Positions 1 to 53,209 of a DNA stretch of 64,000 nt are shown in pieces. The translations under genes were made by a program, and so were the position numbers. The notes beneath the pieces were generated by a model that saw nothing but the letters and a program-made list of their open reading frames with translations, was not told where the DNA came from and searched no databases. Numbering within the stretch: position 1 is the first letter of the stretch; each line of letters starts with the position of its first letter. Source of the DNA: an uncultured Planctomycetia bacterium (GTDB lineage Bacteria > Omnitrophota > Gorgyraeia > 2-02-FULL-51-18 > JAGOUK01); NCBI GenBank assembly GCA_964430735.1, contig CAYSFB010000004.1, positions 104,040 through 168,039 on the forward strand, written 5' to 3'.

Positions 1-3000
1 ATCTGGCCGGATTCCAGGAAGTGAACAAGCTCAAAACCCTCAAGGACACGGAAAAAAATATTTCCTTCGAGAAGGCCAACCTCGAACAGGAAAAGCTCCT
101 AGCAGAACTCTCCTCCAAGGGCCTCAAAACACAAGTCGACGAATATCTCGCCGCGACCAAAAAAACCCGTAATCTCCAAGTCTCGCAGAGCGTTCTTCTC
201 GGGAATCTCATGGACTTGGCCAAGTCCCAGAGCATCGACACCGCCTCCTTTGTCGAACTCTCGCGCTACAGCGAGTACCTCAAGTTCTTCAGCGCCCTGG
301 ACCTGGAGCAGGTGATGAAGGAAGTGGAGCTTCTGGAAGACACTGTTTACAAGAACCTGCTTCCGGCCGAAGACGGCCGCAAGCTCCGCGCCGTCGACCG
401 CTTCGTGGGGCTTCTGAACAAGGCCTACCGGATCAAGATGTCCTCGCATGACTTCAGGACCTTGGCTGCCAACAAAGACGACTTCAAGACCGAGGCCTGG
501 GAAGCCTTCCTGAACGATCAGCTCCTGAAGCTCTCTTATTTTGATGATCTGGTTCCGCTGAAGCCCCTTCTGGAAGAAGCGGCCGAGCCCCTGTTCAACT
601 TCTACAAGCTCGTGGATCAGCGCGACGACGCCTTCCTGGAGAATACGGGCCGGATTCTGGAAGAAGAGAACGTCCAGGTCGGCTATCTCATCGCCGGCGG
701 CTATCACACCGAGAACCTGACCCGTCTCTTCAAGAACGAGGGCTACTCCGTCATCGTTCTGACTCCCGTCGTCGAATTCGAAACGGATCAGAAGCTCTAC
801 GAAAAAATGCTCCTCATGCCCTTCATCCTCGCCCAGAGCGAAAAGGAAAAAGAGGAACGCAAGCTGGCCAAAGCGGAAGACCCGGACGCCTCCCGATCGA
901 CGCTCGGGCAAACCCGGATGCTCCAGAGCCCTCTATCTGCTAAGAGAGCGGCCGGCGAGATGGACAGGTCCGGTCTTCCGTCCGAAGTCCTCCTCCTCGC
1001 CGCAAGACTCGCCGCCGAACCTAAACACGAGAATACAAAAGAGACCGTTGCGGAGGTGTTGGATAAATCGCTGGAACAGACTGCGAAAGATATGGTCAGC
1101 AGTTTGGTGTTCGATTCGCTTCAGATGGCTGAACCGCTGGAATATGATCCTGCGAAATTTGCCGAAGATCTGAAAAAGGTCCGGAGGCCGGACGGCGCCC
1201 GGCTGGCGGAGGCCGAAGCCCTGCGAGCCATAATGGCCGGCGAGAGATTTGATCGTCAGGGCCTCCCGGATGAGGCGGTCGAGCTTGCCATGAAACTGCA
1301 TGAAAAACTGACGGACGAAACGGGCCGGATGGACATGGCTCTGCTGTCCGATCTTATCGGTTTTATGCGGCTGATCGCTGATGAGTACACGGCTAATGTG
1401 TATTCGATCGACATGGAGGCGGTTGTAGCCGCGATCGCGAATGAAAACAATCGGATATATGCTTCTTATCCGAAGGAACTGGCGCTCATGAAAAGGCAGA
1501 AGCTGATCGAAATCAGCGAATTCTTGGAGAGCGAACCCGACATAGTTTTTGCCGAGGGACCTTGGAGATATCCGAACTTCAAGTATGGGGTGGTCAGAAT
1601 GCTTGAAAGGGCCGGCCGCGCGGCAGGCTTGGGGCAACGGAGTTCGACGAGCGGCGCTCCCCGCTACAGAAAACTGGTAATCGATTATCTGGCAAAGACC
1701 GGCGAGAGTGCCGCTTTTCAGGAAAAAGTCCTGAAGCTGTACGATCGACTTGACGACCTGGGGCAAAGCGGAGCTTCGTTTGGCCTCTTTCGGAACACTT
1801 TGACGCGTTTTGGATACGCTGCGGAAAAAGGGGACATTCAATTCGAGCTGGACTATTTTGAAGACAGATTTCGATCAGATTACCTCCAAGACGAAGAGGA
1901 GGAAAATGACGAAGAAGACGATGATGCAGATAGAGAAAAAGACGGCGTGAGTCGAAAGAGTTATGCCGAATTGCTTTATGAACATCAGATAGAGCTGCTG
2001 AACCTCTTCGTTTCGCTCACCCACGACGGCACGTCGCCCAAAAAAATCATCCATCTTTTGAATTCATCCATCAGCTACGCTGAAAATGAGCAATCCGCCA
2101 CCGAGTCCGGTCGGTTTGTGAGTCTTTCGCGGTTGCTCGCTTTGGGCGCCGAGTTTTATGGCGCGGACCGCAGGCTCTTGCTGATGCCCTCCTATCTTCT
2201 TACGGAACAGCATGCCTACAAGTGGGGGGTCTTGAGGACGATTGACGGCGAAGCCGTTCGTGCCGGACAGCACTCCACCGAAGTTTACGCGACCCGATGG
2301 ATTCCAAGAGGCTATTTCGGACTGTTTCCCCGCAGGATCAAGATTTTAAAAGTGGGAATTGATACGAGCAACTTCGAGGTGTGGGGCGCCCGGATGGCCA
2401 CCACCCAAGACATCAAGCTCAGCAGCTGGCAGGGCAGCAGCAGCATGCTCAAGATGCCCAACGGCGACATCATCAATCTGAATAAGATCGATGTGAAGAA
2501 GTCCGGCGTCCTGAAGGACGGCCAACTCACCGACGTTCCATACATCAGCTGGAAAGAAAGGGATGTGGTCAGAATCTCCTACGGCCCCAATGCCATCAAC
2601 GCCAAAGCCAACACCGAGTACACCGAGACCTTCCTTCTGACGGAAAGCAATTGGAAGAGATCGAGCTCGGCCTTTTACACCCTTCCCAACGGATTCATCG
2701 TGAACTTGAATAAGATCTCGAAGGAATCCGGTCTAAAAGAAAAAGGGGGTGCCGTTAAAGTTGAACAATACACCCTTTGGCAGAAAGGCCAAACGGTCGT
2801 GGTTCGGTACACGACGGAAGCGGTCGTAGGCATCAAGCTCACCGTAAACAGCGAAAGCTACTTTGATCAGGTGGAAGCGGTGCAAGGCGCCCGGATGGCG
2901 ACTGAATCAGATGCAAAAGCATCCAATGAGCTTGCCGATAAAATTATGGGAATTACCTTGGATCTCGAGAATCCGTGGGAGCAACGGCTCGATGCTATTT

Positions 3001-5237
3001 ACGCTTTGATCCGCGGACTTTCTTATGTCCAAATCGCCGGGTTGCTGCGCGCCTATCGTTCCCACGAGCAATTCACGGCGGATGATCTGCGCCTGGCCAC
3101 GGACAGGGCGATTTACGATACATGGATAGGTCGACGCACCGAGGCGGCTAAGGTTCTTATGCAGGCGAAATATCCTGCACCGGAAGCGGAAAAGATAAGC
3201 CGCATTGTTAGCGAGTTGGTCGAAGTGGCTCTGAGCCAAAAAAGATTACCGCTCATGGAAATCGTTCAGGAGAAACTCGAGGGCTTGAATCTGAGGGAGC
3301 GGAAAGCCGTGCACACCGAATACTACTCTCATTCGAACGATCCAGAGTTCCAACAAAACAACGCTTATTACGTCTTCATCGAACGAATTCTCAGAGAAAG
3401 AGCCGAACCGGCTATGGGAGAGCTGGAAGGAGACTTGATTGCCCCCATCGCGCCCTCGGACGGTTCCCGACTGGCCGCCCCCATTCCTTTTTATGCCGGC
3501 CTTCCCATGCTGCAATCCGTGTCCGGTGATCCCAGGGTATTGATGAACCAGGTGAATGCGCACCCTGATACGAAAGCGTTCAAGCAAGCGCTTGTTATGG
3601 CTATAAAAAATGGGGATTCGCGATTCGTAAAAAGTATGGGGATACCGTTAGGCGAAAATCAGACCCTCCCTGGAAGGTTTGAGATTGTTGGGCAGGGCAA
3701 AAGTCGCAGGCTGATGTATTTCGCTGATCGGGAAGATGGTTATCTGGTCATTTACGAGGCGAACCTTCCTGATGAAATCGATAAGGTCATTGCAAAGGCC
3801 ATCGATGATAAATTTGACTCAATGGATGATGTGATAAACGGATTGATCAAATGGGTCAAAACCGATAATGCCGCCCGGATGGCCACCACCCAAGACATCA
3901 AGCTCAGCAGCTGGCAGGGCAGCAGCAGCATGCTCAAGATGCCCAACGGCGACATCATCAATCTGAATAAGATCGATGTGAAGAAGTCCGGCGTCCTGAA
4001 GGACGGCCAACTCACCGACGTTCCATACATCAGCTGGAAAGAAAGGGATGTGGTCAGAATCTCCTACGGCCCCAATGCCATCAACGCCAAAGCCAACACC
4101 GAGTACACCGAGACCTTCCTTCTGACGGAAAGCAATTGGAAGAGATCGAGCTCGGCCTTTTACACCCTTCCCAACGGATTCATCGTGAACTTGAATAAGA
4201 TCTCGAAGGAATCCGGTCTAAAAGAAAAAGGGGGTGCCGTTAAAGTTGAACAATACACCCTTTGGCAGAAAGGCCAAACGGTCGTGGTTCGGTACACGAC
4301 GGAAGCGGTCGTAGGCATCAAGCTCACCGTAAACAGCGAAAGCTACTTTGATCAGGTGGAAGCGGTGCAAGGCGCCCGGATAGCGGGAATGGAAGGTGTC
4401 ATCCGATTCTTGGATTTCCTGTCGGTCAAATTCGAAGCTGAGACGGTGGTCGAGATCAGCGACGTCGGCGATCTGGCGCTTACGTCCGCGTTGGCGCGCA
4501 GGGGCGCGAATCTGAGAGGCGCGTCCAAGTCGCAGCTCGTGAAGTCGTTCAGTCCTTCGGTCAGCGGGATCACGGATGCATTGGGAATGCCGTTGTCTTC
4601 AGGCGATGCCGGCACGATCCGGACGACGCAAGCCGGCGGTCAAGCCGCATTTGGCATCGTCGGCGCCGGTGATCAGCTCGGGCAGCACAAGACGCTGGCC
4701 CGCGTCATATCCGGTATGGGGGATGCGGAAGTTCCCGTGCTTATCACGGTCAACGGTAAAACGGCCTCCACGATCAGCGCGATGTCGGCCAAGGAATGGC
4801 TGGAGTTCTTTTCTCTGCTCGAAACGCTCGTTGGCGGCAATATCTTCGTCGACATCGATGGGATGGGTGAAAAAGACACCGGACACCTTGCTCCCGAGAA
4901 CTCGCGGCAGGGTATTCTGACCGGAGCTGGACAAGGCGAGCTTCTCCGTCTCGGTCTGGGCGGGGCCACAGCCAGCGACGGGCTTCCGGATCCTCTGGCC
5001 CTTCTCGCATACGGTGTTTTGCTGCAAACGGATCCGGGCACCGAGGTTAGTCTGGCCGACCGTCTCGAACGGGTGCTTCCGGGCTCGACTCCGGACGTTT
5101 TGAGGGCCATACGCCAGCTTGCCGAGCAGCGCCAAAAAGAACTGGTATTGAGTCGTCCCTTCAAAAGCCTGTCCCAAGCAGAGCAGTTCTTCGAAGCCTA
5201 CGCGATCGTGCGGGCTGCGATCGTCTGGGCGGCCTAA
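1..5237 (+). CDS. Giant multidomain protein A, N-terminus outside window. It has the C-terminal half of a TraB/Tiki-like domain, an acidic stretch, and two identical ~166-aa beta-rich repeat modules.
   Basis: The ORF is open from the window edge and the track ORF 21-5237 uses GTG. Residues ~1-280 align with residues ~250-500 of the 2802-aa ORF at 44801, for example YLIAGGYHTENL...VIVLTPVVEFETDQKLYEKMLL against VLITGGYHTDHL...AVITPQVIHETDKRGYERLLL. There is a DEEEENDEEDDDAD acidic patch. No recognisable catalytic domain is present in the remainder. Confidence 0.6.
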   Translation, partial: LAGFQEVNKLKTLKDTEKNISFEKANLEQEKLLAELSSKGLKTQVDEYLAATKKTRNLQVSQSVLLGNLMDLAKSQSIDTASFVELSRYSEYLKFFSALDLEQVMKEVELLEDTVYKNLLPAEDGRKLRAVDRFVGLLNKAYRIKMSSHDFRTLAANKDDFKTEAWEAFLNDQLLKLSYFDDLVPLKPLLEEAAEPLFNFYKLVDQRDDAFLENTGRILEEENVQVGYLIAGGYHTENLTRLFKNEGYSVIVLTPVVEFETDQKLYEKMLLMPFILAQSEKEKEERKLAKAEDPDASRSTLGQTRMLQSPLSAKRAAGEMDRSGLPSEVLLLAARLAAEPKHENTKETVAEVLDKSLEQTAKDMVSSLVFDSLQMAEPLEYDPAKFAEDLKKVRRPDGARLAEAEALRAIMAGERFDRQGLPDEAVELAMKLHEKLTDETGRMDMALLSDLIGFMRLIADEYTANVYSIDMEAVVAAIANENNRIYASYPKELALMKRQKLIEISEFLESEPDIVFAEGPWRYPNFKYGVVRMLERAGRAAGLGQRSSTSGAPRYRKLVIDYLAKTGESAAFQEKVLKLYDRLDDLGQSGASFGLFRNTLTRFGYAAEKGDIQFELDYFEDRFRSDYLQDEEEENDEEDDDADREKDGVSRKSYAELLYEHQIELLNLFVSLTHDGTSPKKIIHLLNSSISYAENEQSATESGRFVSLSRLLALGAEFYGADRRLLLMPSYLLTEQHAYKWGVLRTIDGEAVRAGQHSTEVYATRWIPRGYFGLFPRRIKILKVGIDTSNFEVWGARMATTQDIKLSSWQGSSSMLKMPNGDIINLNKIDVKKSGVLKDGQLTDVPYISWKERDVVRISYGPNAINAKANTEYTETFLLTESNWKRSSSAFYTLPNGFIVNLNKISKESGLKEKGGAVKVEQYTLWQKGQTVVVRYTTEAVVGIKLTVNSESYFDQVEAVQGARMATESDAKASNELADKIMGITLDLENPWEQRLDAIYALIRGLSYVQIAGLLRAYRSHEQFTADDLRLATDRAIYDTWIGRRTEAAKVLMQAKYPAPEAEKISRIVSELVEVALSQKRLPLMEIVQEKLEGLNLRERKAVHTEYYSHSNDPEFQQNNAYYVFIERILRERAEPAMGELEGDLIAPIAPSDGSRLAAPIPFYAGLPMLQSVSGDPRVLMNQVNAHPDTKAFKQALVMAIKNGDSRFVKSMGIPLGENQTLPGRFEIVGQGKSRRLMYFADREDGYLVIYEANLPDEIDKVIAKAIDDKFDSMDDVINGLIKWVKTDNAARMATTQDIKLSSWQGSSSMLKMPNGDIINLNKIDVKKSGVLKDGQLTDVPYISWKERDVVRISYGPNAINAKANTEYTETFLLTESNWKRSSSAFYTLPNGFIVNLNKISKESGLKEKGGAVKVEQYTLWQKGQTVVVRYTTEAVVGIKLTVNSESYFDQVEAVQGARIAGMEGVIRFLDFLSVKFEAETVVEISDVGDLALTSALARRGANLRGASKSQLVKSFSPSVSGITDALGMPLSSGDAGTIRTTQAGGQAAFGIVGAGDQLGQHKTLARVISGMGDAEVPVLITVNGKTASTISAMSAKEWLEFFSLLETLVGGNIFVDIDGMGEKDTGHLAPENSRQGILTGAGQGELLRLGLGGATASDGLPDPLALLAYGVLLQTDPGTEVSLADRLERVLPGSTPDVLRAIRQLAEQRQKELVLSRPFKSLSQAEQFFEAYAIVRAAIVWAA
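2387..2896. repeat. First copy of a 510-bp intragenic direct repeat with perfect nucleotide identity to 3872-4381
   Basis: The same nucleotide string cgcccggatggccaccacccaagacatc...gtgcaaggcgcccggat occurs twice, 1485 nt (495 codons) apart and in frame. It encodes ARMATTQDIKLSSWQGSS...QVEAVQGAR in both copies. Confidence 0.8.
3872..4381. repeat. Second copy of the 510-bp intragenic direct repeat
   Basis: Identical to 2387-2896 at the nucleotide level. Each unit also contains two internal ~25-aa sub-repeats: LKMPNGDIINLNKIDVKKSGVLKDG and YTLPNGFIVNLNKISKESGLKEKGG. Confidence 0.8.
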
Positions 5238-41100: not shown

Positions 41101-41235
41101 GCCGGCGAATTAGCCGCGCTGGCCGGGGACTGGGGCGCGTACAAGTCCGGCGATATCGCGGCCGACTCCAAGAGTTGTCAAAACTGCGACTTTTATCCGA
41201 TGTGCCGTTATGAAAAACGACGCGACAAAAAATAA
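38140..41235 (+). CDS. addB: AddB-type helicase-nuclease subunit (N-terminal P-loop, C-terminal PD-(D/E)XK nuclease with Fe-S cysteine cluster)
   Basis: The N-terminus carries the P-loop LITGAAGTGKTS. The C-terminus carries QCRFKYF...VDYKSGKG...CQNCDFYPMCRY (Cys4). It is positioned immediately upstream of addA. Confidence 0.75.
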   Translation: MGRMKMRPILRLITGAAGTGKTSRCIELFRDRILASGGSGLDSASYFILPNKEHTDRIHDVLTRDPRVGGLVQHHLLPIGDFVRFKCWTGRDRVVTQFERRWFARRVLDAGAWTWMAQSAGTAGMADCMANWIRAMKTAGADAAGFERAARGPLAAAGDPDKLRDLTAFYRDYENLVRAEGWQDPEDAVAAYARATAERPEAAPAEMDLVVLDGFFSLTHQQLVFLEAAARRSAETVVTLTLPEAAEEGVRAEAFLYPLRLRRKLLGMGFVEERIADAPRRFKSAGLAALERSLPAPAAETDASGVRRIEAAGRRQEVEAIGRAMAAQVRSGRCHWSDQMAVFRGVLAYRPYLEEVFGALEIPYELHERRRLSEHPSVRRMIEWLELTEPAEAAEGAPAVIRVHRWAMWMDAPEVQRELDALPSRLVWEQIPEAVSGSSTDWERERGRMKRFLELDDARGLKTFLEELFRDCAGEQALPETRRAADLTRELIERQAVRPIAGREGVRAAVERFRGDLKSGLYSFSDRRKNCVQIYDTALALPKEYRIVYVGGLNHGEFPAAHREDPILADAERRILAAEGYELDTAEDRRKGEAFFFYMAATRASEELVLSRFAADDEGRSTAESAWWRAAADVFGGTLSTERLESDALLPPAPQLRLPKDLIKKSGQALAPGSPDAAWAPALGAAWDRLDAVDRRLAGFGGTAEDFGGRCAQFRRPAAVNPELLGPAAFQRRKPWSATEAQSIRQCRFKYFAQYGIGIKPPVETTPVMREGEIWHKALEILMRQVFGGGKGGPRPVREAVFRAAPAALEQALREHPPVPERFYSRTARLERIRRRWPRVVEAEWDNLAATRSLAPAHFEAGFGLVENGVPSDRPAFAVTAGSERLEFQGKIDRIDADPASGRALAVDYKSGKGFAPAELKKGMRFQAVLYALALEKVWGYQPVGTEYVSLKSFKRGGLLREDYFLEERPKSRLKNLMDAATFDAFIAGELAALAGDWGAYKSGDIAADSKSCQNCDFYPMCRYEKRRDKK

Positions 41236-44200: not shown

Positions 44201-44404
44201 ACGGTCGCCGAAAAGTGGGAACACCATGATCAGGCGCGCATCTACGCTTTTTGTCTCAAGCAACTGCTTCGGGGGAGACCTCACCGGGCGGCATTGTATT
44301 ACTCACGAGACGGATCGATGGTGCCGGTGGATTTGAAGGCGCTGGAATCTGAAGATTTTAAGCTGGAATTGAGGGAGCGGTTCGAGGCGCTTAAAACGTA
44401 CTAG
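41210..44404 (+). CDS. addA: AddA/UvrD-family ATP-dependent helicase-nuclease subunit
   Basis: The UvrD Walker A is VSAAAGSGKTRVLVERFA. The blocks ITYTQKAADEL, LVDEYQDVN, VGDARQAIYGFRH and TVHASKGLEFPVV are present. The C-terminal nuclease reads GQVDLLFEAPDGKWTLVDYKT. Confidence 0.8.
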   Translation: MKNDATKNNPSASPELSAAQAQAVHCAAADVCVSAAAGSGKTRVLVERFARLVLEHGIAPGRIIAITYTQKAADELRERIERRLIAAGRDLNEHREPAIGTIHGFCLRLLQENAVDAGLDPAFRVLQGDLYEAVVEEAIEETLDEAMRGDPARFAPMLEYSDPSALKSALLQGYERARTLGRRPEPHPAPDPAGLSARIRHWAADVNAWKKELPEKQSDRIGGAADALLAEGADPEALLTALLEIGEPLRLIRRTKALEETATAFLETLETLTAETADAAAAPYNARFAELLERLAAAVAIRKRIGSWVDLHDLMDRVIELLDRPAFQARIRTEYAALLVDEYQDVNALQAKLLDRLGRGLETFVVGDARQAIYGFRHSESAFFIERFARAARSGAAVEIPENFRSRPEVVGWINQVFARRSHAGGLYGDLQARRASAGSGPAVECLWTAPPEGEKLKADALRQLDAAQAAAAILRFTAGGSVRFGDIAVLLSRMTALPAYEDAFRRAGIRYHVMRGRGFYEKNEIVDLVNLFRAVRDPEEPLYLAALLRSPFAGLRDEDIWKIFKNDRADARPAAYEDFVRWFAPLAALRRELTLSQILERALAGSAFEAVTLAQPDGLRRFANIRKFKDVLREFEGLYGSNLDAFVARLEERMDGEAEERETEAAVASERGDAVRILTVHASKGLEFPVVIAADLSGTAPKSRSAGAFVVDDDARILSNPPAPDEDGERIPSAAFLAYQETRAEKEGAESLRLFYVAATRARERLVLCGSLPDTAAGSRKKKSAVSWTDIVLEAFPESVAAVPAGFAVAPGSAPASESTLPVSTADGLWEQLQDRSRPYRQSVDVTVSDLSGAAQEADDIPDAERRTVMADGTESEATLLGASNAGRLFHEMIQHAVFSRDPKEEQARLMSDFGHRMDAAARPDFEQGIQRFLSSRLAEDLRASERAGRPIYRELPFFYRVRGESGERDPGSIKGQVDLLFEAPDGKWTLVDYKTTVAEKWEHHDQARIYAFCLKQLLRGRPHRAALYYSRDGSMVPVDLKALESEDFKLELRERFEALKTY

Positions 44405-44482
44405 AGGAGGGAGTCGAACCCTCAACCCCTTGCGGGGAGTGGATTTTGAGACCACCGCGTATGCCAATTCCGCCACTCTAGC
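44399..44482 (-). tRNA. tRNA-Leu (anticodon CAA), type II with long variable arm
   Basis: The minus-strand sequence gctagag tg gcggaattggcatacgc g gtggt ctCAAaa tccac tccccgcaaggggtt gaggg ttcgact ccctc ctctagt a has a D-arm and variable arm collinear with bacterial tRNA-Leu. A G1-U72 wobble and a U31-U39 mismatch are inferred. The 3-prime end overlaps the addA stop. Confidence 0.7.
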
Positions 44483-44492
44483 AAAAGAAAAA

Positions 44493-44568
<76 letters not shown>

Positions 44569-44669: not shown

Positions 44670-44698
44670 TTGCCAATGAATAGGATTTGCTATATTAT
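44670..44698 (+). promoter_or_regulatory. Putative sigma70 promoter for giant ORF B: TTGCCA, 17-nt spacer, TATTAT
   Basis: It lies in an AT-rich island ~100 nt upstream of the ORF B start. Confidence 0.35.
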
Positions 44699-44800
44699 TC
44701 CGCCCGGCGCTTATTGAACCCTGCGCAGTCCCGGGGCATACTTCGTGCCAGTATATTTTTTGTCCTCTCTATAAAGTATTCATAGGGGAATCACGCCAAG

Positions 44801-47800
44801 ATGCTCTTTTGGGCTCTCTTGCAGTCCACAAGTCTGCTCCGTACTTTAAAACTTCGGATAAGTCGTGCGCGCCGCCGCCGCGTGCCGCTGCGCGCCCTTG
44901 CGCTGGTCCTCGTCCTCGCGCTCGGGTTTGAGGAATGCGCACAAGCGGCTCCGGCGGTGCTTGCGGCCGCTGCGCTCCGTCCGGCCCCGCTTCCCGATTA
45001 CGGTCTTCCGGCGTCCGTCGCAACGGTCGACGACGCGTTTCGGTCGACGGATCCGGATGCGCCCAAAATCCTCCTGGTCCGTGACGCCCACGCCAACCCC
45101 TCCGGACAATTCAATCTGGCGCGCACGCTCGACGCGGTGCTCGAGCGCGAAAATATTTCTGTCGTTTACACCGAAGGCGCCGACCGCGACGTCTCGCTTC
45201 TGTACCTGCGCGATCTGGCCGACCCGTCGGCGCTTGCCCGTGTGGCGAGGGAGTATGTGCATCGGGGCGGGATCAAGGGCAGCGAATATCTGGAGTTGAC
45301 CGGGTCCCGGCGTTTTACGATCCGCGGCGTGGAAGAGGAGCGATTGTACGGAAAGGCGTTGGATGTGTACCGCGGAGTGAGCGCCGCGCGCTCGGACGTC
45401 GGGCGGTTCTTGGCCGAATTGCGCGTGACGGCCGAATTCGTTGAGGATAAAACGCTTCCGGCCGATTTGATCGCCGCGCTCCGGCTGCGCCGGGCGCTGC
45501 GGGAAAAGCGGATCGGGTGGTCGGAATATCTGGACCGGATGGTCGCGCTCAGTCTGAAGCTCGGGCTGACGCTCTCGAATCTGCCGGACCTCGAGGCGCT
45601 CCGCGCGTTGAGGGCGCGGGAGCAGGAGTTGGACGCCGAGGCGGCCGGCCGCGAATGGGATTCCGCGCTCGCCCGCGGCGTCGATCCGGAAAAGGGGTCC
45701 GAAGAATTTCCGCACTTGCGTCGGTACGCGGCTTATAAAAAAATTCTGTCGAACACCCGGTTCCGGCGCCTGACGGCCGATCAAGAAGCGCTGGAACAGG
45801 CTGTGTACGGCGCTCTCGCCGGAAGTGCCGACGAGCTTCAATCGGTCCGCATCGCGCTGGCGATTGAGACGCTCGGTGCGATCGCGGCCATGGAGGCGAC
45901 TCCGGACCAGATCCGCCGTTACCGTTCCGACGCCGAGGCCCACGACCCGGTCCGCATCGCCGCCTGGTTGAACCGGCGGTTGATGCAGTTGGGAACGGGG
46001 CATGAGCGGGCGCTTTTTATGGACGAGGCTTCGACCCGGATCTTGCGGCAGGCGGCCGGTTTTTATCTCACCGCGGATGCGCGCGACCGCGTCTTTGTCC
46101 GCCGCACGCTCCGCCGCATGCAGAGAGACGGGCTCCGGACATCCGTTCTCATCACCGGCGGCTATCACACGGACCATCTCAAGGCCCTTCTCCGGCATCA
46201 GAACATTTCGTACGCAGTGATCACTCCCCAGGTGATCCATGAAACGGACAAGCGGGGGTACGAACGCCTGCTGCTGGGCTCCGACCGCTCCACCCTCATC
46301 CCGCGTTATCACGACAGCCTTCCGGCCGCCGCCCGGCTCCCTCTGATCCGGTCGCTCGGGCTGGACCCGGCGGGTGTCGATGCGGCGCGTCTCGCCCAAT
46401 CATCCGCCGACCGCACGCCGCCGATCGGGACGGTCCGGGAAGGGCTCAACGGTCTGATGCTCGCCGTGAACATTCTCGACCTCGGCATCGAATACCGCTC
46501 GAACCAGCCGCTTGTGAACCGGAATGGTCTGAAAAAACTCAAGGAGCTCATTCCGACCCTGGCGGACATGGGCATCCGCGAGATTTATGTGTACGGTCTG
46601 GCCGAAACGAGCGTGTTGTCCAAACACATCCACCAGGTGCCGACCACCGCGCAATACTTTTTCCACGAAGGCAGCGCCTCGGTGACGGTGGCCCATTACC
46701 CGACGCGGAGCGAGAAGCTGGGCGAGGTGACGCTGCGGGATTCGTGGGGGAATATTTTTTCGATCAATGATATGCGCCGGATCAACCCCATCCTTTCGGA
46801 AGGGGATGCGGAGCAGGACTTGCTCGACGTGACGGCTGCGGCGCAGGCCGCCGGGATCACCGTCGTCGCCGACATGATCAGCTGGCTTTCGCCCGGTGCG
46901 ATCAACAGCTCGAATTACCGGCAGATGTTTTACCGGGAGATCCCGGCCGCCGACAACGAGCGCTTCCGGCAGGTGTCCGATGCCGAAAAGAACGCGTGGA
47001 TCGAGCGGAACATTCTGAGCAAGGATTTGAGGGGGTCGTTTGCGGTCCGCGTGACGGAAGGCGGCGTCGAGCGCATTGTGCTCGTGAAGCATCTCGCGTT
47101 TCACGGGTCCCACAGCGCCGACCAGGCGATTCCGAATCCGCTGCATCCCGCCACGCTGCAGTACTACCTCGACTCCGTCAAAAAGCAGATTGACCGCGGC
47201 ATGAGCGGTCTGCGGGTCGACCTGGGCCACCTTCTGCTCAAGCGCAACATCCGGGGTTACTTCGACGAGATCCGGCACAACGCGGAGGCGTCCGGATCGA
47301 CCATGGAGGAGTGGCTCCGGAACAGCGGCATGGACATCCGTCCCGGCGAAAATTACGAGGCCTGGTGGAGCCGCCAGCCGGAGCCGTGGAGGCAGATCGT
47401 CGACGAAGCCAGTTATTACGCGCTCGAAAAAAACCGGAGCATTCACTTTTATCTGGAGACGTACAACCCGGTCGAGCAGCACGAGTTGTTCAACCTGGGT
47501 GTCGACGGCGCTTACCTCGGAAAGATGTTCGAAGCGAACTACCGCGTCGCCGGCGGAGGATCGCCGCGGGCTTTTGACGACGCGGTGAACGCCGCGCTCT
47601 ACACCCGGCCGCGGTCGCTGATCTACATGACGAACTTCGACCAGATCTCGGAAGAGGCGATGGGCGGTTCCGGCCGCGCCGCGGGGATGCTCCTGGCGAT
47701 TCTGGCCCACGTCGGTTCACCCGCGATTGTCGACTTGAGAGACTTCATGTTCCACCGGGGCCATGTCGCCAAAATCGTCGGCGGCACCCCCGACGCCAAA

Positions 47801-50800
47801 GATCCCCACACCCATCCGTTTCCCACTCACGAGCAGCTCTTGCGCCGGAAGGACTTCGAGGGGATCAAGGCCGAGATCCGGAAGAGCCCTTGGCGCACGA
47901 TTCTTCGGGACTTTTTGAACGCGGTTCCCGGCGACGGGGAAAAGTACGTCACCATCCTCAACAACTCAAACCGCGAGCGGTACTTCACGATCGGCTGGCG
48001 GGCTCAGAACGACCGTTGGGCGATCGCGGTGCTGGACTTCAAGCCGCAGTATGGACGTGATCCGGGGGTGACCGTTCAGCTTCCCAAGAGCGATGATCAA
48101 ACCGGCTTCGACGTTCTGAATTACCGTCCCGTGGAGCTCTCAGGCGCCGAATGCCGAATTTCTAGGTGGGAACCGGGACATCCGGGTTCCCCGGCTGTCG
48201 TCGAAGTCCGGTTCAAGCCCGAAGATGAAATCAAGCCGTACCGATTTATCACCCTGACTCCGATTCATCCCGTGGCCGCCCCGCGCAGGGACGCCAAACC
48301 CTCGCTCGAGAACGCGCTGCGTCAGAATTACATCAAGGGCCGCGTACTGGAGCTGACGCATATCGTCCGCGACGCGGAATTCAAATCGATCCGCCAAAGC
48401 GCGGTATTCTTTTCCCTCCTGGACGACGACTACTTTGTAAGGGCATTTGCGGGCAATCTGCTGGCCGGCCGCGCGCGTCAGGGGTGGGTCGAAGCCGATC
48501 CGACCAAACTGCTCGCTCATCTGCGCGATCCGCTCAAGCCTCTCAAGGAACTCCGGACGCCGCGGATTCCGGGCCGTCAGGACTTCGATCCGATCCGCGC
48601 CCGCCGCAACAGCCGTTACGTCATGCTGTGGGTGCTGGCCAGAATCCTGCAGCCGGACGCCGAAGCCGTGGCCGCCACGATGGGCCGGGACTTGAAGCCG
48701 TACCAGGAGCGTGTCCGCCGGGTTCTGGATCTGCAGCTCCGGCGCGAAGCCGAGTCCTGGGGGCCGGGACATGAGGCGCGGCTGCGCGCGCTGGTCGACA
48801 AACACGACGCGGACCTGGTGCTGGGCGCTCGGCCCGTACTGCCCCCGTTGGAAGTGATGCGGCTGGTGATGCTGAGGGCGCAAAAGGTCGAAGGGTCTTT
48901 GCCGGCCGGACAGCGCGACAATTTTTATTGGGTCAAGCTTGCGGTCGAGCGTGCGTATCCGCAGCGGGAGGACGACCCCGTTTCCGATATTCTTTATGCT
49001 TCGACCGCGGATCCTGGCTCTTCCGGCGCGCGGCTGGCGGACGATCTTAAGGAGAGAGTGGAGCGGATTTTCATGGCGCGGTTGAACCGCGAGTCCGCGA
49101 TCCGGGCGGCCTGGATCCGGGCAGTGCTTTCTTTGAACCCCGCGGTGCTCTGGTTCGTTGGCGGCGTTTCGGTGACCACGATGCAGGATTACCGGGTGGT
49201 CGGAGCGTCGATCTGGGCCGTAGTTTACGGGATCTATCGAGCGAGCTTGAACCGTATCATCGAAGATCCTGTTTTTCATGCGCGTTATCTGGTGTCGCAT
49301 CCCACGGGCGGACAAGACCTGCTTCCGGAGGTGGTCAAGATCCTGGACGGCGCGCGGCTCAGTGCTTTGGATAATTTTGAATCCTTTTATCAAAAGCTTC
49401 GGGCATTGCCCCAGGACGCCACGGCGGAGCAGCTGACAGACGCGATGGATAAGGCGGCGCGGTGGACACGCGGACTGGACGGCATCTCGCTCACGGACGA
49501 CCAGCAGAGGTGGATGTTCTTAAAAGCCAAATTTCTCGCCTTGCAGGCGCAACTGATATGGGAAGCGGCGGATTTGTCTTCCGGCGGCTCGGACAAGGCG
49601 GATCGACTGGATCGTGCTGCCGAGATGTTCCGGTCGGCTGCCGAGCAGCTCGAAAAACACCGGAACCCACTCTACGCCCGCCTTTTGAACGGGTATCAGG
49701 CCGCCGCCAGTCTCGAATCCTTCGTCGCAGGTTACCAGGAGGAGTTGAAGCGGCTCGATGCGGTTGCTGTGACTCCGGAGGCGTTGTCCCGCCGTAGGCT
49801 TTTTAACGACTTCGAATCCAAGGGTCGGTGGCAGCGGGAAATGATCGAGGAGGCCGTTTGGGGAGGAATTCCATTCGTTTCCGATCAGCTTATTGTCCGC
49901 GATAGGATCGCCCGGCGCTTGCATACCGCATTCGAGACGCACCACGCTCTTAAGGCCGAATGGATTCCCAAAGCCAGAGCAGCCGTCGGGCTTCCGCCGT
50001 CCGGTCCGGATCGGATCGTCGATCTTTTGGGAGGGCGACCTGTCAGCCGCAGTATTTCGCGGGAGATGGAAGGTGCCGACCTGGTGTTTTCGTATTTCCG
50101 CAGCATGATGCGGAAAGAGCTCGTAAGCAAAGACATCCGCGATATGAAGCGTGTCCTCATCATCGGCGCGTCCCGTCGCGAGGTGATCGATTGGATCAAT
50201 GCCACGCCGGACACCACCCGGATCACAGCGGTGAACATCGACGGCCGCATGCTCGAAGAAATCGAAAGGCATTTTGTCGAGCATCAGCCCGACGCGCTCA
50301 ACCGGATCGAGATGTTTCGGGCAGACGCCACGCAGCTCGACCCCGCGTATTTCCCGGACGAAACCTACGATTTCATTTACGAGTGGTCGGTCGACCGCAG
50401 CGCCTTCCGGGAGCAGTCGGTGGCCGACCGGGTGTTACCGGCCATCCATCGGGAAGAGACGCGGGTTCTGAAAAAGGGCGGGTATTTATACAAGCTGGTT
50501 ACGGACGATGATTTGTGGGATTTTGACAACCAGCTCGACCGCATCGGCGGCCATCTGTTCATGAAGCCGGCCGCCGGCGCGCGGCTGGCGGATCGCTCCA
50601 GTGTTTTTGAGTTGAATTCCAGGGATACGGGCGAGATCAAGGGTTCGTTCAAGTGGATACAGAAGGCGGACCGGGCGCAGGGGATCATGGAAGACCATTT
50701 GGTATTTTTATGGGCCAATGAACCTTCCGGTCCGCCCGCCCGCTCCGCCGTTTACGATATTTTTGTCATTCCCGTGCGGGAGATTGCGCGCTGGAAGAGC

Positions 50801-53209
50801 ATGGACGGGATACGGGGTTCTTATCAGGGTTGGGCAAATCTTTATTTTGACGCCGACAAGCGGTTGGTGCGGAATCGCGAGGATGCCGTTTGGGGAGGCT
50901 GGGTGACCAAGCGTTCGCGTCTGCACCGATATCCCTGGATCAACGAATTCCTGGTCCGCCGGTTGACCGTGCTGGCGGGGCGTCAGTTGTCGCCGAACGC
51001 TTCGGGAATGGACGACGAAATCGACGGTTTGGACGCATGGCTGGCGTTGACGCCCGAGGAATCCCAAATTCCGATGCGGCTGGACCGGCAGGTGCAGCAA
51101 GAACGCACGGTCGCGGCGATTGAGGCCCTCGAGTCCGACGAACGGCAGCTGGAGTCGTACCCCCGGGCCAAAGCGGAGGCGATTTTCCGAGAGTTGCTGC
51201 GTCAGGTGATCCATTCCGGATCTTATGCCGGTCCCGCTCACGGGATCCCCGCTGCGGACGTTCAAAAAATATCGGAGAATTTGAACGCCGGCGCTTCCAT
51301 TCAGTCATTTTCCGAAGATCTGCTGAACGATCCGGGACTTTCCGTTCAGAGTCGCAACTTGTTCGCGGGCTATCTGATGCAATTCCGGCCGAGGGGGAAA
51401 AATCCTCTGGCGTTTGACGCCGGAAGGCCCCTGTTCCGGTACTACCTCGGGATCGAACCGGCGGCTCCTGACGTTTTTAAAGGGGTTTACCGGTATGTCC
51501 GAGTGATCGGCGCGGGAGCGGAAGGGGTGGTGTTTGAGGTCGCGGACACGCGGTCGGGCCGGACTCTTGCGCTCAAGGTGCTTGCCGGCGGGGGCGCGGG
51601 ACAGGCGGAGACGTTCGCCCGGGCGCTGTCGGGATATTCCGGCGTCGCCGAGATCGTCGAGTATGGGAGCGCCGGCAGATTTGATTACATTGTCCAGGAA
51701 CTTTTGGACGGAGCCGAGATGAGCCACCGCAGCTTTTTGAGCGACCTCGACCGGCTTTATTACAGTCCGGACGAGCGCTTGCAGGTGCTGCTCCGGCTCA
51801 TCGAAGGACTTTCTGAGTTGATGGACCGCGGGATCCTGCCCAAAGATTTTCAATTCATGAGCAAGGCTTCCGCGGGGAGCGCCGACATCAAGTTTTTTGA
51901 CAGCGGCCAATGGATGTTTTTTGGAAGCCCGCAAAGCATCCGCGATTTTGGCGACGACGATCTGGAGGTCTTCACCGCCTCGTTCACACGCTTTTTTGCC
52001 CACCTGCTGCGTTCATCCTCGCGCGATCTCATGGTTGGCCGCTCGCAGGATTCGGAAGCCCTGCGCGCTCTGGTCCTGGAATCGGACCGGATCGAGGCAA
52101 AAATAAAACCGGATGCTCCGTACGACTTCGTTCCTTACATCCGGATGGTCCGCGCGGCCGCGCAGATGACTTTGCAGAATCAGGCGGCGGAAGCTGACTT
52201 TGAAAAAGCTTACCGTAGCTTGGGGATGTACGAACAGATGCGTCTGGACCAATTCGCCGGCCGCATGTCCGACATCACCGCCGTGTTTAAAAACGTGCGC
52301 CTCTACAAGTCGGCGCGTCTCCGCACCGTTTTGGGCGCGCGGCTGGCGCAAGCGGAGGACTTCGGCATATCGGACGAGCGGTTGAGGCCATTTTTGGCGG
52401 CGGTGGCGAGGGCGAAACGTGCCGTGTTGTCGCAGGGTGCAAAAAAGTTCGTGCTCGCGGACGATGAGGGACGGCTCAAGACGATCGTGCTCGGCGCTCA
52501 GGCCGTCACGACCGACAGGATTGCGCCGTCCGAACCGGTTGAAGCGGAGTATGTGCCGCGGTTGTCGGGTGAGCAGGCGGTCGAGCGGGATGCGGAGGTC
52601 TTCGGTCTTTTGGCGGAGATCGCCGACCGCTGGGGTGTGGATCCGACGAATTTTGAGTTTCGATGGGAAGACGTGGCTTCGGGCGCGGACGCAGCGGCGT
52701 TGCCGGCTCTGAAGAAGAGCCTGATCGCGCTTCAGAAAACCGTTCGGAGCAAGGGCTGGGGCGTGTTGCGGATCGCCGGATTCTCGGAGCCGGATCCGAT
52801 CGCGGGAGCGCCCACGACTGCGTTGTGGAACCGGAAACACCCTGGTTGGATGGATGAGCGTATCCGGGCTTCCAGGGCCCATAACGTCCATCTTGCGTTC
52901 GAGCGGGAGGGGGACGAGTCCCTTCCTTATATGAGCGCGATCCTGTTCTCCGGTCTTCTGAGTCATGCGCTTCAGATCCGGGACGCGGCCGAACGCCGGG
53001 AGCGTCTCGCTTCGCTGACTCCGATTTTTAGGAGTCTCACCGGATCCATGCTGTCGTTGACCGACGAGGCGGAGCCCGGCTTCACGGTCTATGAGCCCGC
53101 CAAGTTGAGCGTCTATCCCGCCATCCAACCGCTCACACTGCGCGGATACCTCGACCTCGTCGTTTATCTCCAGAGTCTCTCCCGCGTGTCCGTTTCCGAA
53201 TCCGCGTAA
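44801..53209 (+). CDS. Giant (2802 aa) multidomain protein B: signal-anchor, TraB/Tiki-like domain, GH13-like TIM-barrel module, Rossmann MTase-like module, divergent protein-kinase-like module
   Basis: This is a single uninterrupted ORF with coding-like codon usage throughout. The N-terminus is RRRRVPLRALALVLVLALGF. The motifs LLVRDAHAN...ITGGYHTDHL are paralogous to ORF A at 1-5237. Module-level evidence is given in the findings. Confidence 0.8.
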   Translation: MLFWALLQSTSLLRTLKLRISRARRRRVPLRALALVLVLALGFEECAQAAPAVLAAAALRPAPLPDYGLPASVATVDDAFRSTDPDAPKILLVRDAHANPSGQFNLARTLDAVLERENISVVYTEGADRDVSLLYLRDLADPSALARVAREYVHRGGIKGSEYLELTGSRRFTIRGVEEERLYGKALDVYRGVSAARSDVGRFLAELRVTAEFVEDKTLPADLIAALRLRRALREKRIGWSEYLDRMVALSLKLGLTLSNLPDLEALRALRAREQELDAEAAGREWDSALARGVDPEKGSEEFPHLRRYAAYKKILSNTRFRRLTADQEALEQAVYGALAGSADELQSVRIALAIETLGAIAAMEATPDQIRRYRSDAEAHDPVRIAAWLNRRLMQLGTGHERALFMDEASTRILRQAAGFYLTADARDRVFVRRTLRRMQRDGLRTSVLITGGYHTDHLKALLRHQNISYAVITPQVIHETDKRGYERLLLGSDRSTLIPRYHDSLPAAARLPLIRSLGLDPAGVDAARLAQSSADRTPPIGTVREGLNGLMLAVNILDLGIEYRSNQPLVNRNGLKKLKELIPTLADMGIREIYVYGLAETSVLSKHIHQVPTTAQYFFHEGSASVTVAHYPTRSEKLGEVTLRDSWGNIFSINDMRRINPILSEGDAEQDLLDVTAAAQAAGITVVADMISWLSPGAINSSNYRQMFYREIPAADNERFRQVSDAEKNAWIERNILSKDLRGSFAVRVTEGGVERIVLVKHLAFHGSHSADQAIPNPLHPATLQYYLDSVKKQIDRGMSGLRVDLGHLLLKRNIRGYFDEIRHNAEASGSTMEEWLRNSGMDIRPGENYEAWWSRQPEPWRQIVDEASYYALEKNRSIHFYLETYNPVEQHELFNLGVDGAYLGKMFEANYRVAGGGSPRAFDDAVNAALYTRPRSLIYMTNFDQISEEAMGGSGRAAGMLLAILAHVGSPAIVDLRDFMFHRGHVAKIVGGTPDAKDPHTHPFPTHEQLLRRKDFEGIKAEIRKSPWRTILRDFLNAVPGDGEKYVTILNNSNRERYFTIGWRAQNDRWAIAVLDFKPQYGRDPGVTVQLPKSDDQTGFDVLNYRPVELSGAECRISRWEPGHPGSPAVVEVRFKPEDEIKPYRFITLTPIHPVAAPRRDAKPSLENALRQNYIKGRVLELTHIVRDAEFKSIRQSAVFFSLLDDDYFVRAFAGNLLAGRARQGWVEADPTKLLAHLRDPLKPLKELRTPRIPGRQDFDPIRARRNSRYVMLWVLARILQPDAEAVAATMGRDLKPYQERVRRVLDLQLRREAESWGPGHEARLRALVDKHDADLVLGARPVLPPLEVMRLVMLRAQKVEGSLPAGQRDNFYWVKLAVERAYPQREDDPVSDILYASTADPGSSGARLADDLKERVERIFMARLNRESAIRAAWIRAVLSLNPAVLWFVGGVSVTTMQDYRVVGASIWAVVYGIYRASLNRIIEDPVFHARYLVSHPTGGQDLLPEVVKILDGARLSALDNFESFYQKLRALPQDATAEQLTDAMDKAARWTRGLDGISLTDDQQRWMFLKAKFLALQAQLIWEAADLSSGGSDKADRLDRAAEMFRSAAEQLEKHRNPLYARLLNGYQAAASLESFVAGYQEELKRLDAVAVTPEALSRRRLFNDFESKGRWQREMIEEAVWGGIPFVSDQLIVRDRIARRLHTAFETHHALKAEWIPKARAAVGLPPSGPDRIVDLLGGRPVSRSISREMEGADLVFSYFRSMMRKELVSKDIRDMKRVLIIGASRREVIDWINATPDTTRITAVNIDGRMLEEIERHFVEHQPDALNRIEMFRADATQLDPAYFPDETYDFIYEWSVDRSAFREQSVADRVLPAIHREETRVLKKGGYLYKLVTDDDLWDFDNQLDRIGGHLFMKPAAGARLADRSSVFELNSRDTGEIKGSFKWIQKADRAQGIMEDHLVFLWANEPSGPPARSAVYDIFVIPVREIARWKSMDGIRGSYQGWANLYFDADKRLVRNREDAVWGGWVTKRSRLHRYPWINEFLVRRLTVLAGRQLSPNASGMDDEIDGLDAWLALTPEESQIPMRLDRQVQQERTVAAIEALESDERQLESYPRAKAEAIFRELLRQVIHSGSYAGPAHGIPAADVQKISENLNAGASIQSFSEDLLNDPGLSVQSRNLFAGYLMQFRPRGKNPLAFDAGRPLFRYYLGIEPAAPDVFKGVYRYVRVIGAGAEGVVFEVADTRSGRTLALKVLAGGGAGQAETFARALSGYSGVAEIVEYGSAGRFDYIVQELLDGAEMSHRSFLSDLDRLYYSPDERLQVLLRLIEGLSELMDRGILPKDFQFMSKASAGSADIKFFDSGQWMFFGSPQSIRDFGDDDLEVFTASFTRFFAHLLRSSSRDLMVGRSQDSEALRALVLESDRIEAKIKPDAPYDFVPYIRMVRAAAQMTLQNQAAEADFEKAYRSLGMYEQMRLDQFAGRMSDITAVFKNVRLYKSARLRTVLGARLAQAEDFGISDERLRPFLAAVARAKRAVLSQGAKKFVLADDEGRLKTIVLGAQAVTTDRIAPSEPVEAEYVPRLSGEQAVERDAEVFGLLAEIADRWGVDPTNFEFRWEDVASGADAAALPALKKSLIALQKTVRSKGWGVLRIAGFSEPDPIAGAPTTALWNRKHPGWMDERIRASRAHNVHLAFEREGDESLPYMSAILFSGLLSHALQIRDAAERRERLASLTPIFRSLTGSMLSLTDEAEPGFTVYEPAKLSVYPAIQPLTLRGYLDLVVYLQSLSRVSVSESA

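Follow-up and report, generated by a model that had tools for sequence, protein, structure and literature searches.

What kind of product is encoded by a gene that joins several unrelated enzyme-like modules into one very long polypeptide, and does it stand alone or represent an organised system? This question is raised by a gene of 2802 codons within a stretch of 64,000 nucleotides (the window) from contig CAYSFB010000004.1 of an uncultured Planctomycetia bacterium. A preliminary description had proposed a single continuous open reading frame (ORF), encoding a secreted or membrane-anchored protein with TraB/Tiki-like, glycosidase-like, methyltransferase-like and kinase-like modules, and had not recognised this combination from any characterised family. 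Our analysis revealed that the 2802-amino-acid (aa) protein belongs to a large family, the defining features of which had been missed: an N-terminal domain recognisable as TIKI fold (the head), pentapeptide junctions of the type GAR[LM]A between exchangeable cassettes, and a C-terminal signature. We assign a probability of roughly 0.5 to the reading that the protein is an exported beads-on-a-string precursor, the cassettes of which would be recognised at the GARLA junctions and probably cut apart there, the head being the candidate for this processing step. Coordinates of all features are collected in Table 1.

The integrity of the gene is a prerequisite for any such reading. The frame opens at 44786 with the ATG at 44801 as the earliest start in it, and it is uninterrupted. 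Residue-identical proteins were recovered from two independent Logan assemblies (SRR14271366 and SRR14271373) and from a 238-kb NCBI contig. A frameshift or an assembly join, named in the preliminary description as the event that could break the ORF, is therefore excluded. The antisense ORFs within the gene, reaching 517 aa, are shadows of the kind common in GC-rich coding DNA and illustrate that such DNA can give long open frames. Nevertheless, an explanation of the ORF as chimeric assembly, pseudogene run or chance open frame is already refuted by the run of 2802 sense codons free of stops, by the identical product of the two assemblies, by hundreds of proteins homologous to head and tail, and by the confident AlphaFold2 (AF2) model of the head.

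The head provides the first of the family-defining features. In its AF2 model (mean predicted local distance difference test, pLDDT, of 82), the core strands (residues 74-80, 89-95, 121-124, 173-176, 447-453, and 470-476) form a parallel beta-sheet sandwiched by alpha-helices. This is the core by which the TIKI superfamily is recognised, namely a parallel beta-sheet with alpha-helices on both sides, the active members carrying in addition two His and two Glu residues (2His/2Glu; PMC6254334). The TraB/Tiki-like assignment made earlier is thus right at superfamily level. The putative catalytic residues D95-x-H97, E125, and H456 would constitute an intact 2His/2acid centre and are invariant in 153 of 153 family representatives; the same holds true for Q103, G176, E178, Y183, E274, Y422, R428, G453, G454, P476, and Y487. 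The spacing of 28 residues between H97 and E125 equals that of Bcr135 (H85/E113) and RRSP (H3902/E3930) (PMC6254334). The first acid of the centre is Asp rather than Glu, the correspondence with the 2His/2Glu centre resting on sequence pattern and spacing. As the pattern D95-x-H97...E125...H456 resembles the TIKI-family centre, the head is, as judged from its sequence, very probably an active hydrolase.

With the TIKI/TraB/PrgY/EreA/ChaN superfamily (comprising the Tiki Wnt protease, RRSP, erythromycin esterases, ChaN, and HopBA1) the head has in common the helix-flanked parallel beta-sheet core, the putative 2His/2acid centre with identical His-to-Glu spacing, and the presence of lineage-specific inserted domains. 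It differs from these proteins by the Asp in place of the first Glu, by its helical insert of ~260 aa, by being always joined to a signal peptide and a long string of cargo, and by the lack of a sequence-profile match, whether to the Pfam models TraB and Tiki or to PDB chains.

The head also revealed the extent of the family. An initial homology search retrieved 17 other long proteins (1,800-4,900 aa), of which the named ones are labelled Candidatus Omnitrophota or Omnitrophica. These relatives share aa ~20-530 with the 2802-aa protein and the closest four of them aa 2512-2802 as well, while the rest differs. In a narrow pattern scan with a four-sequence head alignment and one genome per species, 345 head copies were confirmed, mostly in metagenome-assembled genomes (MAGs) titled Candidatus Omnitrophota or ‘uncultured Planctomycetia’; copies were also found in one Eisenbacteria MAG and one Auribacterota MAG. 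Finally, a head profile was searched against 1.84 billion cluster representatives (clusters at 50% identity). The head defines at least 10,193 clusters, 7,096 of them at E ≤1e-30, so that the protein is not an orphan. It is always located at residues ~1-550, in proteins of about 570-7,500 aa, and the head of the 2802-aa protein matches the family profile with E 1.9e-176. Beyond signal and head, this protein displays four strict junction sites and one relaxed site as well as an [SA]-A end, i.e., the full set of features by which the family is defined.

Family members occur as paralogues, with at least seven in one MAG and two in the window. The second member of the window, recognised by BLASTP (E 1e-17, query aa 283-492), retains the second half of the head (29% identity, including a GGYHT motif), followed by six junctions (AARLA, GARLA, GARMA twice, GSRLA, and AARMA) and the C-terminus ...IVRAAIVWAA. 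It has no Pfam match, and its GC content is 0.54 compared with 0.62 in the main gene. At six loci of related genomes (L016, L035, L042, L058, L068, and L073), a motif-rich, very long ORF ends just upstream of a family gene on the same strand, which suggests that family genes are arranged in tandem or else that frameshifts have split them. Distant head-bearing relatives carry many transmembrane (TM) helices (P0014 and P0015) and, in P0014, a SecA domain.

The second feature is the junction motif. When all 5-mers C-terminal to the head were counted without bias in 153 members, GARLA came first, with 385 occurrences in 95 proteins, followed by GARMA, GARLS, and GSRLA. The resulting pattern G[AS]R[LM][ASTG] was observed 733 times in these members, in comparison to 13.8 occurrences expected from shuffling (53-fold enrichment). 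In the 2802-aa protein, four copies compare with 0.126 expected, and none of 5000 shuffles reached this number. When the window was translated in all six frames, the motif appeared in the two family ORFs alone. Across 78 related loci, ORFs of 1200 aa or more contain it at a density of 1.52 per 1000 aa, compared with 0.035 for those of 100-599 aa. A general proteome feature was accordingly rejected as explanation, the motif being absent from the other ORFs of the window and 43-fold rarer in the ordinary-sized ORFs of the related loci.

The motif also behaves as a peptide rather than as a DNA element. Synonymous codons vary freely among 31 motif sites in four genes, which indicates that selection acts on the peptide; as all synonymous codons occur among these sites, a DNA repeat or recombination signal was dismissed. 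In alignments spanning motif sites, the motif core is 54% identical versus 24% in the flanks of ±15 aa. The preceding positions are enriched in small residues and proline (Ser/Ala at -1, Pro/Ser/Ala at -2 to -4). The motif copies covered by the two AF2 models (head and tail) lie in low-confidence segments and are presumably flexible. As a separate observation on codon usage, the 15-mer GGCGCGCGGCTGGCG, containing GCGCGC, encodes three of the five motif copies of the main gene (49025-49039, 50576-50590, and 52334-52348). It consists of the most-used codons and is found at 5 of the 31 sites in the four genes versus ~0.4 expected from codon usage; this mild excess could aid recombination between cassettes.

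The motif is not uniform throughout the family. P0027, P0032, and P0058, which are devoid of strict sites, have variant junctions (A[AST]RM[AT] and GSRV[AG]), and P0015 and P0018, both with many TM helices, show no motif at all. The family may therefore contain sub-classes with different junction codes or none. A link between loss of the motif and loss of the catalytic residues of the head was considered and rejected, these residues being invariant in members with and without strict sites.

The placement of the motif delineates the cassettes. None of 65 motif sites falls inside a Pfam-matched stretch, compared with 7.8 expected. Intervals between motifs match whole proteins, such as CsrA (between sites 3997 and 4091), a receiver domain (2185 and 2323), adenylate kinase (1100 and 1354), and phosphoenolpyruvate (PEP) carboxykinase (PEPCK; 1468 and 2064), and HPr and GDPD occupy adjacent intervals. 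The median spacing of motifs is 287 aa and the first site is located at a median position of aa 604, just past the head. The borders of BLAST homology blocks cluster around the motif, with a 3-5 fold enrichment at distances of up to 10 aa from a site. This is also seen in the 2802-aa protein itself: the homology of cassette 2 to P0006 stops at aa 1415, the block common to P0002 extends from aa 1415 to 1522, i.e., from motif to next motif, and the tail alignments with P0002, P0003, and P0005 all begin at aa 2512.

The comparison with the closest relative, P0002, is most instructive in this respect. The two proteins are 54-57% identical in head, cassette 3, and tail, and these three parts (the cassette measuring 103 aa) are all they share, as P0002 is devoid of the GH13-like, methyltransferase, and kinase modules. 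In P0002 the copy of the 103-aa cassette (55% identity of cassette 3 to P0002 aa 1933-2044) sits elsewhere, again bracketed by motifs (AARMA at 1915 and GARMA at 2039). Because a protein this similar in the remaining parts is without three of the cassettes, cassettes must be exchanged on a short evolutionary timescale. The domain combination, which the preliminary description had highlighted as a candidate for an undescribed system, is thus not the conserved entity, the module set differing even in P0002. The cargo of other members comprises IMPase, alpha/beta-hydrolase, GH77, HPr, GDPD, PEPCK, FBPase, CsrA, adenylate kinase, LOG, aldose epimerase, receiver domains, SecA, M20 peptidase, and FHA domains. 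In P0078, P0144, P0152, and P0013, cytoplasmic housekeeping cargo is found behind a signal peptide, including an ATP-dependent PEPCK and a LOG-like domain.

The cargo of the 2802-aa protein was examined at the level of single cassettes. In a Pfam scan of the whole protein, the methyltransferase remained sub-threshold and the kinase was faint only; each cassette was then scanned singly. All four module calls made earlier appear to be right at superfamily level. The modules lie roughly where they had been placed, the large stretches without recognisable homology were confirmed, and there is no match to any characterised family.

The GH13-like module, corresponding to the glycosidase-like call, shares 30% identity over 575 aa with the stand-alone 617-aa protein P0019. 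When a four-sequence profile of this module was compared with PDB, 28 of 29 matches were GH13 enzymes, each of them weak (E 0.03-0.7). The alignments fall on the GH13 regions I, II (RVD), and IV (NFD), and the residues D807, E886, and D947 (Asp/Glu/Asp) are invariant across the GH13-like sequences aligned. It is this concordance of many individually weak matches that points to GH13 membership; Pfam, the Alpha-amylase model included, returned no match for this region nor for P0019, P0020, and P0006. Together, P0019, P0006, and P0020 apparently define an unannotated GH13-like subfamily, in which RVDLGHLLLK, the Glu, and NFD are invariant. P0019 is encoded on a 205-kb contig of an AT-rich organism, possesses neither a signal peptide nor a Pfam match, and is homologous to positions 46439-48109 of the window.

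The methyltransferase cassette, if scanned alone, passes the cut-offs of both Methyltransf_25 (28.4 bits, cut-off 27) and Methyltransf_11 (25.3 bits, cut-off 21.2), compared with 23.2 and 20.8 bits in the scan of the whole protein, and is therefore assigned to the class-I S-adenosylmethionine (SAM) methyltransferase-like domains. Its motif I reads LIIGAS and not GxGxG, which makes SAM binding putative. Within the helical-repeat region in front of it, aa 1596-1690 gave weak PPR/TPR-like PDB matches. The kinase-like module matches the N-lobe of PknA (E 2e-4) and shares 30% identity over 167 aa with P0021, a Pfam-positive kinase; its Pfam Pkinase score of 15.6 bits lies under the cut-off of 31.7. 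The Gly loop G2237-x-G-x-x-G (GAGAEG) and the VAIK Lys (K2259) are kept, as are D2349 (PKD replacing HRD) and D2367 (DSG replacing DFG), and the catalytic-loop Asn is absent. These residues are consistent with an atypical kinase or a pseudokinase.

Export of the protein is suggested by its N-terminus, where the signal or anchor claimed earlier was recovered with an arginine-rich n-region, a hydrophobic stretch, and an AxA site. With a Kyte-Doolittle (KD) value of 1.72, this segment is the sole clear hydrophobic segment of the protein. Across the family, the N-terminal consensus reads FLxQDLAxAAP, and A47, A49, and A50 are invariant in close relatives. Internal TM anchoring was rejected, a KD of 1.6 being reached only by the signal and by a buried strand of the GH13-like module (aa 961-979). 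Two moderately hydrophobic stretches in cassette 3 (aa 1441-1475, 49121-49225) stay at KD ≤1.56, with 1.64 in the P0002 homologue. The first of them, aa 1441-1459, reaches 1.56 and is ambiguous as TM segment; the two may represent a membrane hairpin or a pair of buried helices. In the case of membrane passage, the cassettes that follow would come to lie on the other side.

These data bear on the proposal of the preliminary description that the gene encodes a surface polysaccharide-processing or signalling megaprotein, with four modules cooperating in one pathway. The GH13-like module with its catalytic triad kept, the N-terminal signal, and the frequency of sugar-metabolism domains in long Omnitrophota proteins would be in line with such a role, for which we found no specific support: the closest relative has another module set, the cargo in other members is unrelated, and methyltransferase and kinase would need SAM and ATP, which are absent outside the cell. 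Moreover, no carbohydrate-binding or adhesion domain was detected in Pfam scans of the protein. Most cargo consists of homologues of ATP-, SAM-, or PEP-dependent cytoplasmic enzymes, and this, in combination with the N-terminal signal, argues against an extracellular polysaccharide role. We consider the proposal highly improbable.

The third feature is located at the C-terminus. The last ~27 residues of family members are amphipathic, with the core ...[LVI]-Q-[GA]-A-R-[LM]-A-phi-[KRQ]-A-[VI]-G-x-[SA]-A-COOH, of which the 2802-aa protein has a degenerate form (...GYLDLVVYLQSLSRVSVSESA, ending SVSESA). An [SA]-Ala end is present in 100 of 155 members, compared with 54 of 1849 background ORFs (2.9%), and 112 of the 155 end in Ala; many of the members without Ala end are probably fragments. 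The junction motif is embedded in this signature, 8-12 residues from the end (positions -13 to -9), and in 23 of 155 members the last 30 aa contain a GAR[LM]A-type site. The module preceding the signature in the 2802-aa protein belongs to a tail type of ~290 aa found in 8 of 133 long members; for its modelled alpha/beta fold no specific structural relative was found.

The recurrence of the same core at internal junctions and at the C-terminus opens the possibility that GAR[LM]A and the [SA]-A end act as sorting or hand-over tag, read by a transporter, a chaperone, or a PDZ-type C-terminal-binding protein. Such a partner would thread or dock each cassette, and the head would not be the protease. 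The excess of the terminal signature over background, resembling terminal recognition, fits with this assumption, as do the shortness of the motif, the disorder of the linkers where modelled, and the residues preceding the motif (small at -1, Pro at -2 to -4). Some proteins even end 6-12 aa past a motif, for instance P0013 with ...RRGARLSEISA, a real stop, and a downstream gene. Three results speak against it: no conserved partner gene was seen beside family genes in the contexts examined, none of the NCBIfam sorting-signal models matched the C-terminal signature in ten C-termini scanned, and the motif is not trailed by a hydrophobic or charged segment, unlike sortase- or exosortase-type signals. 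Overall, we judge this explanation unlikely.

In the reading preferred here, a family member would consist of a Sec-type signal peptide, the head of ~430 aa, variable cassettes connected by G-[AS]-R-[LM]-A linkers, and a tail with the C-terminal signature. The precursor would be exported, and the GAR[LM]A junctions would be recognised and most likely cut, thereby freeing the cargo enzymes or handing them over singly. The candidate for this processing is the head, as no other enzyme domain is found throughout the family and as sequence-specific endopeptidases, among them Tiki and RRSP, occur in its superfamily (PMC6254334). As the most speculative step, the destination of the cargo might be another cell or a cell-cell interface. 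This is deduced from the cytoplasm-type cargo, the N-terminal signal, and the lifestyle of the Omnitrophota, proposed in passages of PMC10066038 to be host-dependent or predatory. The furthest-reaching version holds that many Omnitrophota, and possibly related candidate phyla, produce a share of their enzymes as exported self-processing polyproteins, with the head cutting G-A-R-[L/M]-A and thereby freeing whole enzymes and regulators (kinases, methyltransferases, enzymes of glycogen metabolism and gluconeogenesis, CsrA, and adenylate kinase) into or onto a partner cell; this we put forward tentatively, as a possibility clearly short of even odds.

A number of observations weigh against the preferred reading. 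Regarding the head, aa 1-540 gave no Pfam match even at E ≤10 (TraB/Tiki models included) and the head no NCBIfam match; its profile returned noise only from PDB sequences (best E ≥0.23) and its model no Foldseek match in PDB at E ≤0.001. The TIKI superfamily comprises peptidases as well as esterases and haem binders, and the fold hence does not establish protease activity. Regarding the junctions, only 37% of site-spanning pairs retain the motif at the corresponding place in the alignment, which means that sites turn over. Thirty of 153 members have no strict site and nonetheless intact heads, implying a motif-independent role of the head. As the motif is also part of the C-terminal signature, its internal copies could be conserved for a reason other than cleavage. 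Regarding export, the signal peptide is deduced from hydrophobicity and the conserved AxA alone, no conserved neighbouring secretion or protease gene was found in the genomic contexts examined, and the cytoplasm-type cargo (ATP-, SAM-, and PEP-dependent enzymes, CsrA) fits export poorly unless a recipient cell exists.

Several of these points speak for the main rival explanation, an uncleaved scaffold with the motif as selected linker or fusion joint. The protein would then act as an intact membrane-tethered or periplasmic multi-enzyme assembly, and GAR[LM]A sites would be fusion scars doubling as linkers, produced by recombination between the C-terminal signature of one family gene, with the motif in it, and a motif site in a second gene. 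The position of the motif within the C-terminal signature is what end-to-head fusions would leave. Cassettes are demonstrably shuffled between motif sites, the 15-mer GGCGCGCGGCTGGCG could provide microhomology, and both site turnover and intact heads in members without motif favour this explanation as well. Proteins of this type have also been treated as single ‘multi-enzyme metabolic clusters’ with signal peptide/TM topology (10.64898/2026.06.07.730766). A neutral scar should, on the other hand, decay like its flanks, in conflict with the higher identity of the motif core, and the enrichment of the motif with freely varying synonymous codons indicates a peptide under selection. Internal sites reside in P/S/A-rich linkers, unlike the amphipathic-helix context of the terminal copy, and there is no obvious reason to join unrelated proteins such as CsrA, adenylate kinase, and PEPCK. 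Taking both sides into account, the scaffold appears to us a rather doubtful, if the most serious, competitor of the processed precursor.

The immediate neighbourhood of the gene agrees with the earlier claim of a tRNA-Leu/tRNA-Ala pair on the 5' side and a MarR-TolC-RND unit on the 3' side, both tRNAs being encoded on the minus strand. In detail, AddB, AddA, UvrA, and a TPR protein are found 5' of the gene, and MarR, an OEP/TolC protein, an ACR_tran/RND pump, MgtE, and LeuRS 3' of it. The last 7 nt of the AddA-like ORF (41210-44404, plus strand) overlap tRNA-Leu(CAA) on the opposite strand, placing the tRNA pair directly between the housekeeping operon and the family gene. An AT-rich promoter island of its own had also been attributed to the gene. 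The lower GC content of the 232-bp intergenic region (0.55, precisely 0.546, compared with 0.58-0.66 along the gene and 0.62 overall) and a sigma-70-like match stand, the promoter itself being a consensus match only. The same applies to a divergent sigma-70-like match at 44614-44585, which points toward the tRNAs.

Table 1. Features of the family gene, its product, and its surroundings (nucleotide positions refer to the window)
Feature	Residues (aa)	Nucleotides	Strand	Remarks
Second family member		3..5237	+	N-terminus cut by window edge
tRNA-Leu(CAA)		44398-44482	minus	
tRNA-Ala(GGC)		44493-44568	minus	
Sigma-70-like promoter match		44670..44698	+	TTGCCA-17-TATTAT; 10/12 positions match; consensus match only
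Complete gene	2802 codons + stop	44801..53209	+	ATG at 44801, stop at 53207-53209
Predicted signal peptide or signal anchor	1-49	44801..44947	+	n-region RARRRR; h-region LRALALVLVLALGF; putative site A47-Q48-A49 / A50-P51
Head module	62-495	44984..46285	+	TIKI/TraB/EreA/ChaN-fold alpha/beta core with helical insert of ~260 aa (aa 180-443)
Relaxed junction motif AARLA after the head	528-532	46382..46396	+	block-mean pLDDT 40-50; residues 530-540 below 50
Cassette 2	533-1408	46397..49024	+	GH13-like module (aa ~547-1103) and ~300 aa of unknown function
Junction motif GARLA	1409-1413	49025..49039	+	
Cassette 3	1414-1516	49040..49348	+	small module of unknown function; two stretches of moderate hydrophobicity (KD max 1.56)
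Junction motif GARLS	1517-1521	49349..49363	+	
Cassette 4	1522-1925	49364..50575	+	helical-repeat region, then class-I SAM-methyltransferase-like domain (aa ~1756-1897)
Junction motif GARLA	1926-1930	50576..50590	+	
Cassette 5	1931-2511	50591..52333	+	~290 aa of unknown function, then divergent protein-kinase-like domain (aa ~2228-2385)
Junction motif GARLA	2512-2516	52334..52348	+	disordered in the tail model, with pLDDT below 50
Tail module	2517-2802	52349..53206	+	alpha/beta; function unknown; one of several recurrent tail types
C-terminal signature	2776-2802	53126..53206	+	predicted amphipathic helix ending S-A-COOH; reads ...LRGYLDLVVYLQSLSRVSVSESA (degenerate form)

Comparison with known systems helped to define what is specific to this family. 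Viral polyproteins likewise contain whole proteins in one ORF, short consensus junctions, and an embedded processing enzyme. The present gene differs by its cellular genome context (UvrA, AddAB, tRNAs, LeuRS), by the many paralogues per genome, and by cleavage that is only proposed. In polymorphic toxins, short demarcation peptides (VENN in CdiA, PxxxxDPxGL in Rhs) border exchangeable enzymatic cassettes; these borders coincide with recombination breakpoints, and there is just one per protein, followed by one toxin at the C-terminus that is paired with a cognate immunity gene. The likeness consists of the short peptide at the border of a conserved part and exchangeable cassettes. The differences are up to 32 borders per family protein, cargo that is not toxin-like, and no immunity-like neighbour seen.

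MARTX toxins, the effectors of which include an alpha/beta-hydrolase and the cysteine protease domain (CPD) of which cuts after Leu, are the closest functional analogue, with no diagnostic domain in common. RTX or glycine-rich repeats, a CPD (Peptidase_C80), and an architecture of the type I secretion system (T1SS) type all went undetected in Pfam and NCBIfam scans of the protein. MARTX proteins resemble the family, on the reading preferred here, in being very long secreted polypeptides with conserved termini around a variable array of effector enzymes, in the variation of these arrays among strains by cassette exchange, and in the liberation of effectors by linker cleavage; a TIKI-family endopeptidase, RRSP, is even among the effectors (PMC6254334). 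They differ by a C-terminal T1SS signal, compared with the predicted N-terminal Sec-type signal here, where furthermore the candidate protease would be the TIKI-fold head, the junction is a fixed pentapeptide, and the cargo comprises mostly housekeeping-type metabolic enzymes.

Long multi-enzyme proteins as such are already known from the Omnitrophota, namely the ‘Archaeovorins’ (West-Roberts et al. 2023, bioRxiv 10.1101/2023.11.21.568195) and the class termed ‘multi-enzyme metabolic cluster’ (Nielsen & Lui 2026, bioRxiv 10.64898/2026.06.07.730766), and passages of Seymour et al. 2023 (Nature Microbiology, PMC10066038) also deal with giant ORFs of this phylum. To judge from the names of relatives, these giants and the protein investigated here probably originate from the same phylum. 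They have in common an N-terminal signal peptide, large unannotated stretches, a string of unrelated, mostly cytoplasm-type domains (methyltransferase, kinase-type, sugar enzymes, receivers), poor sequence conservation among members, and suspected post-translational cleavage. The giants differ by a size of at least 10,000-30,000 aa, by tens of TM helices, and by SecA-like and C39 peptidase domains; Archaeovorins in particular are defined by at least ~30,000 aa, numerous TM helices, and divergent SecA DEAD, HEAT, and C39 domains. With its 2802 aa and a single hydrophobic segment at the N-terminus, and devoid of the SecA, HEAT, and C39 domains, the protein described here is no Archaeovorin.

Neither of the two preprints mentions TraB/Tiki, linkers, a junction motif, or a C-terminal signature, and none of the three family features (TIKI-fold head, junctions, and terminal signature) appears in the passages on giant ORFs in PMC10066038. 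A full-text literature search for ‘GARLA’ returned surnames only, and a search for Omnitrophota polyproteins or their processing retrieved only an unrelated study on SpeD fusions; the result list of a search for V. archaeovorus proteomics likewise showed nothing of use regarding processing. What is new here are therefore the head, the GAR[LM]A junction code, and the C-terminal signature as organising features of such proteins.

These features are of immediate consequence. Cleavage of the Omnitrophota giants has been raised as an open question, the analysis of which is blocked since the cleavage points are unknown (West-Roberts et al., 10.1101/2023.11.21.568195). A universal N-terminal enzyme domain, a five-residue junction code, and a C-terminal signature make this question directly testable, with the GAR[LM]A sites as concrete candidate cut sites in the family proteins, and the junction code offers a rational way of splitting such proteins for structure prediction. 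If the self-processing reading is true, the family would represent a cellular polyprotein and effector-array system that has a C-terminal signal of its own and a defined code for cleavage, and the GAR[LM]A code might also parse the giants of 10,000-147,000 aa. Confirmed processing would mean a large-scale cellular use of the polyprotein strategy and probably a new logic of effector delivery in ultra-small, host-dependent bacteria.

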